In this document: positions 10,642 to 11,699 of the stretch, one piece after another
Layout: each line of letters begins with the position of its first letter
Position numbering within the stretch: position 1 is the first letter of the stretch
Virus record (IMG/VR): IMGVR_UViG_3300037264_002389
Coordinates: 74,545-129,257 of that record
DNA from: a virus
Lineage: Duplodnaviria > Heunggongvirae > Uroviricota > Caudoviricetes
DNA: 54,713 bases
Strand: one strand, 5' to 3'
Position numbers and translations under genes: made by a program
The notes under the pieces: model-generated
What the model was told of the DNA's origin: nothing
The model's input: the letters and a program-made list of their open reading frames with translations, nothing else
Databases searched by the model: none

Positions 10642-11580
10642 ATGATTACTTCACGCATTGATTCTATCACTAAAATCCCACAGGAATATATGAAACCAGT
10701 CTTGCCAGCGCCAAAATCAGTAAAGATAGAATTAACTTCAGTTTGTAACTTCCAATGCGGTTTTTGTGCTAGTAAGTTGCGACTTAAGAAACGCGGCGAA
10801 ATGGATTGGAAGTTTTATCGTCGTGTTATTAAAGAAATGCGCCAAGCAGGGGTTGAAGAATTAGGTGTTTTTTACATTGGAGAGTCATTCACGCTAGATT
10901 GGTTGCCAGAAGCGATAAGTTATGCGAAACGTGTAGTTGGCTTTCCATACGTTTTCCTCACAACTAATGGCTCATTATCTGATAAGGAAACTGTTAATGC
11001 ATGTATGAAAGCTGGACTTGATTCGTTGAAATTCAGTTTTAATAATGACTATGAACAATTTGAAAATATTACTGGAGTAAGCGTTAAAAATCTCGATAAA
11101 ATAATCAAAAACATCAAAGATGCTTATGAATTACGTAAGGAGAATGGATATAAATGTGGTCTATATGCCTCTAGCATCATGTTTGATGGCGATCAACAGA
11201 AACGTATGGATATTCTAGTGGATCAGATTAAACCTTTTGTAGATCAACATTATTGGTTACCATTGTATTCATTTGGGTCGTTGGCCGAGAAACGTGAGGC
11301 AGAACTTGGTTATCGTCCGATTGCCGGTAATCAGGGTCGGATTGGAGCGCTGCGCGACCCATTACCGTGTTGGTCTGCTTTTACAGAGGGACATATTACT
11401 TATGATGGTAAGTTATCAGCATGTTGTTTTGATGCTGGTGATAAGTGGATTATGGGTGATTTGAATAAGATCTCGTTTATGGATGCTTGGAACTCCCAAG
11501 AATTTCAGAAGCTGCGTGAAGCACATTTGAAGAAAGATGTCACTGGTTCGATCTGTGAGCAATGTGTGGCCTATAGTTGA
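10642..11580 (+). CDS. Radical SAM enzyme with SPASM/Twitch domain
   Basis: CNFQCGFC (CxxxCxxC); C-terminal CWSAF...ACCFD...CEQC. Confidence 0.9.
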   Translation: MITSRIDSITKIPQEYMKPVLPAPKSVKIELTSVCNFQCGFCASKLRLKKRGEMDWKFYRRVIKEMRQAGVEELGVFYIGESFTLDWLPEAISYAKRVVGFPYVFLTTNGSLSDKETVNACMKAGLDSLKFSFNNDYEQFENITGVSVKNLDKIIKNIKDAYELRKENGYKCGLYASSIMFDGDQQKRMDILVDQIKPFVDQHYWLPLYSFGSLAEKREAELGYRPIAGNQGRIGALRDPLPCWSAFTEGHITYDGKLSACCFDAGDKWIMGDLNKISFMDAWNSQEFQKLREAHLKKDVTGSICEQCVAYS

Positions 11581-11605
11581 CAGCAATGAATGATTATGAT
11601 AAAAT
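11577..11605 (+). promoter_or_regulatory. Sigma70-type promoter
   Basis: TTGACA-17 nt-TAAAAT with an extended -10 TG. Confidence 0.85.
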
Positions 11606-11612
11606 ATAAATT

Positions 11613-11699
11613 GAGGAGATAAAGATGCTCTAGGTTGAACACCCACCTTAATACCATGGCTTCTCCGCCAACTAACAACCATCAAGGAGATAGCCATGG
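11613..11699 (+). promoter_or_regulatory. Leader: RBS plus ATG-CTC-TAG mini-ORF and an RBS/start-occluding hairpin
   Basis: GAGGAG 11613-18; ATG 11625; TAG 11631-33; next in-frame TAA 11649-51. Hairpin ccatggct-tctcc (11654-66) pairs with ggaga-t-agccatgg (11686-99). Confidence 0.7.

Follow-up and report, generated by a model that had tools for sequence, protein, structure and literature searches.

A short leader in front of gp118, a gene of a tRNA-rich jumbo phage (36 tRNA calls), probably acts as a translational switch that responds to the amber-suppressor tRNA encoded by the phage itself. The leader lies in a 54,713-nucleotide (nt) stretch of DNA, hereafter the window, which is the last 54.7 kb of the 129-kb IMG/VR contig IMGVR_UViG_3300037264_002389 (positions 74,545 to 129,257 of the record; the contig is estimated to be 35% complete). 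It carries a Shine-Dalgarno (SD) sequence, a mini-open reading frame (mini-ORF) interrupted at its third codon by an in-frame TAG that we call the gate stop, and a hairpin that takes in the SD and start codon of gp118. From the sequence of this leader and its relatives we infer suppression at the gate, stalling of the ribosome that has read through, opening of the stem and an on/off output. We also lean toward a broader reading in which many large standard-code phages carry a self-contained "suppression regulon": a suppressor tRNA (amber, ochre or opal) would induce a sensor leader, which controls a small helical protein, together with a Pth2-like hydrolase whose gene has the cognate stop at a fixed codon.

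A first-pass annotation of this DNA had pointed to a promoter, a GAGGAG ribosome-binding site (RBS) and an ATG-CTC-TAG mini-ORF, the reading frame of which would end, after read-through, at a TAA (11649-51) 2 nt 5' of a 13-bp hairpin that buries both the RBS and the ATG of the gene starting at 11696. Reading positions 11400-11900, we confirmed that all of these elements are real (Table 1). The promoter scores 11/12 and is the top sigma70-like site in the 15 kb between 5 and 20 kb of the window; its −35 hexamer overlaps the TGA stop codon of the preceding radical-SAM gene, and the transcript start is predicted near 11612, just 5' of the mini-ORF SD. The 5' arm of the hairpin consists of an anti-start and an anti-SD, and the 3' arm holds the SD (GGAGA) and ATG (11696-98) of gp118, with the pairing taking in ATGG; GGAGATA is among the commonest RBS words of the genome. 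The 114-nt leader folds with an energy of −30.6 kcal/mol (z = −3.3 against dinucleotide shuffles), and the hairpin by itself with −19.8 kcal/mol.

The amber suppressor that the first-pass annotation had placed 1.1 kb away is also real, a CUA tRNA 1081 nt upstream of the TAG, with a canonical 7-nt anticodon loop (CUCUAAA) and an acceptor stem identical to that of the phage tRNA at 23763. The genome in which it sits is standard-code and not recoded: under code 11, ORFs of at least 100 amino acids cover 85% of the fragment, and a scan for early or internal TAG codons followed by a long open frame found only one credible internal TAG in the whole 129 kb, in the Pth2-like gene at 12935. The largest pair of same-frame ORFs joined by a TAG (3466-5472, minus strand) does not look like a case of TAG recoded as sense: its translation reads as two separate enzymes, which we take from that translation to be a GDP-mannose-dehydratase-like and an adenosine-deaminase-like protein. 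The extensions that follow TAG stops were not clearly shorter than those that follow TAA or TGA stops.

We propose that the leader works in the following way. When the switch is off, ribosomes that load at the strong SD would synthesize fMet-Leu before terminating at UAG 11631-33, which lies 20 nt before the stem and would be too far away to disturb it, so that the SD and AUG of gp118 would stay paired and gp118 would not be made. Counted from the first base of the P site, the mRNA channel of the ribosome extends some 11-13 nt downstream, and a ribosome halted at the UAG, with 11628-30 in its P site, would thus fall short of the stem at 11654. When the switch is on, charged tRNA-CUA would outcompete release factor 1 (RF1), and some ribosomes would read the UAG and go on through Val-Glu-His-Pro-Pro to UAA 11649-51, which tRNA-CUA should be unable to read and at which they would terminate. 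With this UAA in its A site, the ribosome would reach about 11657-59, unwinding the pairs that hold the ATG and weakening the upper stem. The Pro-Pro before the stop would slow termination, and the ribosome would dwell with its leading edge in the lower stem, freeing the AUG and weakening the SD pairing such that a second ribosome could initiate on gp118.

The Pro-Pro-stop end of the read-through peptide, a point absent from the first-pass annotation, would thus be what holds the ribosome on the stem. In Escherichia coli, a C-terminal Pro-Pro hinders termination and arrests ribosomes in every genetic context tested (PMC3834316). The very early position of the gate is likely to limit the cost of the off state to a dipeptide and may also make suppression easier. 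The Pth2-like gene, which lies farther downstream, would respond to tRNA-CUA directly, by way of the UAG at its codon 36.

The first-pass annotation had suggested checking the TAG and its spacing in relatives, and had named homologous leaders without the TAG or the mini-ORF as a finding that would refute the switch; the comparison gave the opposite result. We compared the window with DNA from eight loci that encode gp118 homologues (L071, L078, L079, L080, L082, L083, L085 and L087; L081, a second contig of the L080 protein, was not treated as a separate family member). These homologues are 36-72% identical to gp118, with L071 at 72% and the more distant ones at 36-53%. All nine leaders have an SD-led mini-ORF with a very early stop, and in eight of the nine the frame continues to a Pro-Pro-stop, which is followed after 0-2 nt by a hairpin that conceals the SD and start codon of the next gene. 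In these eight leaders the hairpins, which pair the SD and start of the respective homologue, have energies of −13.7 to −21.7 kcal/mol. Taken together with the matching of stops and tRNAs described below, this conservation favors the switch that the first-pass annotation had put forward.

The closest relative, L071, keeps the gene order of the window (leader, gp118 homologue, tRNA-like RNA, Pth2-like gene and the next two genes). Between the two leaders codon 2 has changed and the TAG has been kept; the two differences after the TAG both fall at third codon positions (Val to Val and Glu to Asp), and the stem shows one compensatory change (T-A to A-T) and one change of A-U to G-U. The L071 leader is 77% identical to that of the window, whereas identity at third codon positions in the three flanking genes is only 54-59%; the leader is therefore more conserved than synonymous sites. 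To count hairpin pairs across all nine leaders, we folded each sequence alone and anchored it at the start codon, as MAFFT misaligned the 5' arms. The SD and start are paired in each, the pairs at −5 to −1 relative to the start vary on both sides, and the pair at the start codon itself covaries: it is T-A where the start is ATG and C-G where it is GTG.

The mini-ORF is in the frame of gp118 in eight of the nine gp118-type leaders, with distances from the final stop to the gene start that are multiples of 3 (45, 45, 54, 66, 54 and 48 nt). The window alone is off-frame by one base, with a distance of 44 nt and an SD-ATG spacer of 5 nt instead of 6. The shared frame may go back to an ancestor in which codon 3 of the gene was itself the gate, or it may point to read-through fusion at a low level.

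Wherever a local suppressor tRNA was seen, its anticodon is cognate to the gate stop: TAG is matched by CUA in 12 leader loci, and TAA is matched by UUA in two (L082 and L083). The final stop is never cognate, being TAA or TGA in the CUA loci and TGA in the UUA, or ochre, loci. Through wobble pairing, a UUA tRNA can decode UAG as well. In L082, a UUA tRNA (63 bits) lies about 60 nt 5' of the TAA-gated leader, and L083 has the orthologous UUA tRNA (60 bits; Infernal alignment). Different tRNA scaffolds act as suppressor in the amber and the ochre loci, and a poorly resolved tree of eight loci requires one or two switches between TAG and TAA. Two RNAs were left out of the suppressor counts. One is the L085 tRNA (3824-3895), directly 5' of an amber-gated leader, which by energy forms a 5-bp stem with a 9-nt loop (CUUCUAACC, with CUA central) and which Infernal reads as UCU on a mismatched stem. 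The other is a tRNA-like RNA of L078 with the loop CUACUACA.

Searching IMG/VR with an alignment of the Pth2-like protein, we found a further 23 loci (L088-L110). A suppressor tRNA lies within 3.5 kb of the Pth2-like gene in 22 of the 23, with or without a stop inside that gene; it is CUA in most, UUA in L097/L098 and UCA in L101 and L103. Eleven distinct loci share the leader plan, placed 350-400 nt 5' of the Pth2-like gene and before a gene for a protein of 90-130 amino acids. In three of the Pth2-linked loci the gate lies directly in an ORF, namely, in L100, in the Pth2-like gene of L102, which has a second TAG as well, and in the Pth2-like gene of L101, where the gate is opal and a UCA tRNA immediately precedes the gene.

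With the window and the eight gp118 homologues, these 11 loci bring the total to 20 leaders, of which 19 have the full plan: an SD, a start, 1-5 codons, a gate stop, a few codons leading to Pro-Pro, a second stop and a hairpin over the next SD. An SD 6-8 nt 5' of the mini-ORF start and an early gate stop (at codons 3-6, in most cases codon 3) are present in all 20. In the Pth2-linked set the final stop is either inside the stem or precedes it by no more than about 4 nt. Three leaders (L080, L089 and L091) have two cognate gates before the final Pro-Pro-stop, an arrangement that would steepen the response. A purine follows every one of the 23 gate stops (A in 12 and G in 11), a context reported to favor nonsense suppression in E. 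coli. The residue before the Pro-Pro-stop varies among the relatives (His, Lys, Arg, Glu, Ile or Ser; His or Lys in the gp118-family loci), and the two proline codons vary too (CCA CCT, CCA CCA, CCC CCA, CCC CCC, CCA CCG, CCG CCG, CCA CCC and CCT CCT). This free variation at the third base is what one would expect if selection acts on the peptide and not on the RNA. When we used the pattern of SD, start, 1-6 codons, stop, 2-8 codons, Pro-Pro and stop as a composite query against both strands of 1.5 Mb of DNA, it returned the window leader, seven related leaders and one stray match. Independent initiation of the segment after the gate was considered and rejected; its first codon (GTN or ATY) is mostly no start and lies at least 15 nt from the SD.

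The promoter hexamers of the window also precede the leaders of L078 and L088 and none of the others; elsewhere, a tRNA or another gene lies upstream of the leader. The promoter is thus lineage-specific and stands outside the core device.

The Pth2-like gene of the window matches Pfam PTH2 (PF01981) with 31.2 bits (cutoff, 23) over residues 1-66, across the TAG at residue 36, and encodes a short version of this family of roughly 100 amino acids. All eight gp118-linked loci have an internal stop at codon 36, and its type is that of the leader gate: TAG in the window, L071, L078 and L085 and TAA in L079, L080, L082 and L083. Four more loci (L088, L089, L100 and L102) have an internal stop at or near this codon, which brings the number of phage loci to 12, and the stop is always of the type of the neighboring leader's gate. 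A sediment metatranscriptome from 2025 contains the phage sequence, unchanged over most of positions 9000-15000, together with a 90%-identical variant of the Pth2-like gene (12979-13181) that keeps the TAG and differs at 20 other sites; thus, a close relative coexists in the sediment habitat. The gene looks like a programmed target of suppression and not a pseudogene.

Table 1. Positions of the features discussed, with the leader sequences of related loci (bracketed triplets are stop codons)
Feature	Locus	Position	Strand	Details
Amber-suppressor tRNA, anticodon CUA	Window	10477..10550	−	ARAGORN; Rfam tRNA 47.3 bits; cloverleaf fold
Radical-SAM/SPASM gene	Window	10642-11580		Pfam
sigma70-type promoter	Window	11577..11605	+	TTGACA 11577-11582, 17-nt spacer, TG-extended TAAAAT 11600-11605
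Mini-ORF SD, GAGGAG	Window	11613..11618	+	6-nt spacer to ATG
Mini-ORF, ATG CTC TAG	Window	11625..11633	+	Met-Leu-amber; gate stop TAG 11631-33, followed by G
Read-through segment, GTT GAA CAC CCA CCT	Window	11634..11651	+	Val-Glu-His-Pro-Pro, then TAA 11649-51
Hairpin, 13 bp	Window	11654..11699	+	Arms 11654-11666 and 11686-11699; bulged T 11691; 19-nt loop
gp118 gene	Window	11696..12052	+	118-amino-acid basic, all-helical protein
tRNA-shaped RNA	Window	12207..12283	+	Rfam tRNA 55.1 bits; GAAA-capped 8-bp stem replaces the anticodon arm
Pth2-like gene	Window	12935..13231	+	In-frame TAG 13040-42 (codon 36); 1.3 kb 3' of the leader
Leader	L071			SD, ATG CGT TAG GTA GAT CAC CCA CCT TAA, hairpin
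Leader	L078			MH[TAG]VHDHPP[TAA]
Leader	L085			ML[TAG]VSDHPP[TAA]
Leader	L087			(GTG)L[TAG]VFKPP[TAA]
Leader	L082			ML[TAA]ISIFKPP[TGA]
Leader	L083			MKQFW[TAA]VYKPP[TGA]
Leader, two gates	L080			ML[TAA]IDKPP[TAA]IDPHPP[TGA]
Leaders, one gate	Pth2-linked			MR[TAG]VPNIDLHPP[TAA]; MK[TAG]IKIPP[TAA]; MKK[TAG]MLKPP[TGA]
Leaders, two gates	Pth2-linked			MR[TAG]VPPFY[TAG]IPPHPP[TAA]; MW[TAG]VKTSPP[TAG]GNSRSPP[TAA]
Gate directly in ORF	L100			MT[TAG]V...
Gate directly in ORF	L102			Pth2-like, MT[TAG]V... and second TAG
Opal version	L101			Pth2-like, MSGYG[TGA]
Pth2-like gene	L071	719-1015		
Pth2-like gene	L078	1133-1441		
Pth2-like gene	L079	1133-1447		
Pth2-like gene	L080	707-1021		
Pth2-like gene	L082	2461-2766		
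Pth2-like gene	L083	2212-2514		
Pth2-like gene	L085	4470-4772		
tRNA-shaped RNA	L071	625-703		GCAA cap
tRNA-shaped RNA	L078	1045-1119		
tRNA-shaped RNA	L084	453-528		
tRNA-shaped RNA	L084	710-782		

Several observations weigh against a suppressor-driven switch. The elbow of the CUA tRNA is noncanonical (G55 and a single G in the D loop), and the tRNA stands alone, on the strand opposite to the leader. By crude gene calls, TAG ends about 39 of 184 ordinary ORFs, and since a strongly active suppressor would extend the proteins that they encode, suppression must be partial or tolerated. L079 has no Pro-Pro-stop (its mini-ORF reads ML[TAA], after which the frame stays open into a GTG start), the AT-rich loci have weak hairpins of −8 to −13 kcal/mol, and no such leader was found in L090, L095, L103 or L110. 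In L088, L089 and L091 the two proline codons are CCU CCU and double as anti-SD, and selection at the RNA level may therefore contribute to the conservation of Pro-Pro in these three loci. The motif of the window is His-Pro-Pro and not the characterized RAPP/RGPP arrest motif. The contigs of the metatranscriptome come from an RNA library and cannot show the start, strand or level of a transcript, and no variant contig spans the leader. Finally, a ribosome arrested at a stop can trigger mRNA cleavage and rescue by transfer-messenger RNA (tmRNA) (PMC3834316).

The same data bear on other explanations of the leader. It might sense termination capacity, with RF1 (amber) or RF1 and release factor 2 (RF2) (ochre) becoming limiting or inhibited during infection and the tRNA serving as a constitutive decoder only. 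At an early in-frame stop, release factor and tRNA compete and both set the output, and termination on very short nascent chains is inefficient, as minigene work has shown; the gate lies at codon 3 in most leaders. The sensing of release factor and the sensing of tRNA are not mutually exclusive. We nevertheless regard the release factor as an unlikely input: the type of stop tracks the anticodon wherever both were seen, on tRNA scaffolds that differ, which argues for the tRNA as the co-evolving partner, and no gene for a release factor or for an inhibitor of one was seen in the loci. We find it similarly improbable that there is no switch at all, that is, that the gate codon is in practice a sense codon in a constitutive eight-codon upstream ORF (uORF) and the early stop is a by-product of incipient recoding. 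On this explanation, the pause at Pro-Pro-stop would couple translation to gp118 or would sense the supply of elongation factor P (EF-P) or prolyl-tRNA. In-frame stops do build up in phages that have a suppressor tRNA (bioRxiv 10.1101/2021.08.26.457843), and the same genome has a uORF-hairpin coupling without a gate (34704-34774). Drift, however, would scatter the stops, whereas here they are at fixed positions, doubled in three leaders and always before a purine. Apart from the Pth2-like gene, moreover, there is no other credible internal TAG in the 129-kb fragment, and TAG ends many ordinary genes.

The hairpin might also act through alternative transcripts or RNA processing, as in the T4 genes e, soc and 49, in which case the mini-ORF would be incidental: long transcripts reading through from upstream would be closed, and a second promoter or an RNase cut in the hairpin would give an open mRNA. 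RBS-hiding hairpins on early transcripts are a classic feature of T4, and read-through transcripts are likely here, as the radical-SAM gene ends only 45 nt 5' of the mini-ORF ATG. There is no promoter-like site in the loop or the 5' arm, however, and this explanation, which we hold to be very unlikely, leaves the conserved gate, the Pro-Pro-stop, the 0-2 nt spacing and the anticodon match unaccounted for. As to the idea that a promoter-like site, an SD-ATG and a hairpin lie together by chance, mini-ORFs of up to five codons behind an SD are not rare (nine in 20 kb of intergenic DNA of this genome), and in a crude scan the gp118 start ranked only 18th of 184 for RBS occlusion. Chance is refuted by the conservation, the covariation and the matching of stop and tRNA across 20 leaders, and we give it virtually no weight. 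A switch that senses the suppressor tRNA is the reading that we retain.

Parts of this device resemble known systems. In plasmids R1 (tap-repA) and ColIb-P9 (repY-repZ) and in phage MS2 (coat-replicase), translation of an upstream ORF, or its termination, unmasks a downstream RBS; unlike the leaders described here, these upstream ORFs have no gate stop and need no dedicated tRNA. The lambda bar minigenes (AUG AUA UAA) act by peptidyl-tRNA drop-off. They share with our leader a two-codon ORF behind a strong SD in a phage, as well as a link to peptidyl-tRNA hydrolase (here the Pth2-like gene of the module), but the in-frame continuation, the Pro-Pro-stop and the downstream hairpin are all missing from them. 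In prfB, the gene for RF2, an early in-frame stop likewise senses termination against an alternative way of decoding. There, the in-frame UGA is passed by a +1 frameshift on an internal SD and a single polypeptide results, whereas the phage leaders stay in frame 0 throughout and their output would be initiation on another ORF.

The arrest-peptide leaders (SecM-secA, MifM-yidC2, the ermC type and ApdA/ApdP of the RAPP class) are likewise short, SD-led leader ORFs with a pause at a proline-containing end (PMC7897499, PMC10951233). In them, the paused ribosome sits on the 5' arm of an SD/start hairpin and a second ribosome translates the next gene, a likeness that for the phage leader is one of geometry only. 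They differ in input, which for them is a drug, secretion or insertion activity, or an amino acid, and for the phage leader would be the decoding of a stop codon by a tRNA, and also in length, the phage leader having only 8-12 codons. Arrest at Pro-Pro also underlies the action of regulatory peptides of the RAPP class (PMC10951233, PMC7897499), in which RAPP/RGPP sits within a longer nascent chain; in the phage leaders, x-Pro-Pro stands directly before the stop and resembles the C-terminal termination arrest of YbeL-PP (PMC3834316).

In recoded phages (codes 15 and 4), as proposed here, a phage suppressor tRNA decides the translation of phage genes in a standard-code host, and that tRNA has been proposed to be a posttranscriptional timer (bioRxiv 10.1101/2021.08.26.457843; PMC9523058). 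The stops of recoded phages are spread across many late, structural and lysis genes, and their coding density collapses under code 11, whereas the stops described here occupy set positions of a single leader and a single enzyme gene, and read-through would lead to the opening of the RBS of a separate ORF. The study of phage XacN1 treated all amber stops as read through and found no target for its amber suppressors (PMC5852040). Our full-text literature searches found no description of a suppressor-tRNA-sensing leader or of a link between a Pth2-like gene and a suppressor.

Suppressor tRNAs are annotated in many standard-code jumbo phages, and their targets have been an open question; the locus described here and its relatives would offer a defined, conserved set of targets and a mechanism. 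If the proposal is correct, a tRNA that decodes a stop codon would for the first time be the ligand of a natural riboregulator, and this would explain why standard-code jumbo phages keep "orphan" suppressor tRNAs. It would add a new class of input to leader-peptide riboregulation, with a stringency that can be tuned by one or two gates, and the device may be a stage between standard-code and fully recoded phages. The small parts (about 90 nt and one tRNA) could serve as orthogonal translational switches.

The protein whose synthesis the leader would control has no match to a Pfam or PHROG family. Its AlphaFold2 model (predicted local distance difference test score [pLDDT], 94.5) has four long helices and one short turn, and fold searches with Foldseek (PDB and AFDB clusters) and VIA-align (wide) gave generic helical matches only, the best with a Z of 6.6 (VIA-align). 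We found two close homologues, and a profile search led to 24 clusters at 50% identity; an alignment of all 26 family sequences was too diverse to scan with. The protein was not found in GenBank phages, and scans with gp118 or with other alignments of its family returned no relatives in IMG/VR contigs, Joint Genome Institute (JGI) metagenome contigs or a prokaryote genome collection. At the DNA level, the region from 10400 to 12500 gave a tRNA-like match only against GenBank phages. The gp118 family has a weak hhalign match (E value, 0.019; probability, 2.4%) to the "HIAYCLLRG" small proteins encoded after the Pth2-linked leaders.

Directly 3' of gp118 and its homologues lie tRNA-shaped RNAs with normal acceptor, D and T arms, in which a long stem, capped by GNRA (GAAA or GCAA) or by an odd loop of 6-10 nt, takes the place of the anticodon arm. 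With the anticodon arm replaced, these RNAs cannot decode normally. They are a conserved part of the gp118 module. The radical-SAM/SPASM gene on the other side of the leader behaves as a freely moving cargo gene: it has 69 relatives in IMG/VR phage contigs (46-70% identity), none of which shares the neighbors that it has in the window, and these 69 loci served as background only.

The loops of the leader hairpins (11667-11685 in the window) are C/A-rich and G-poor, and in the window and most relatives they are free of G; words like CCAACC/CAACCA are kept between distant loci. The loops could be unstructured platforms for ribosome standby or for the binding of ribosomal protein S1. The second uORF-hairpin device of this genome (34704-34774) has a uORF of 14 codons (MREQAMRGKDDAMT) without a gate stop; the TAA of this uORF falls within the 5' arm of a perfectly paired 11-bp stem. 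The 3' arm of this stem holds the ATG of the next ORF (34772), and in the crude scan for RBS occlusion this start was the most occluded of all 184.

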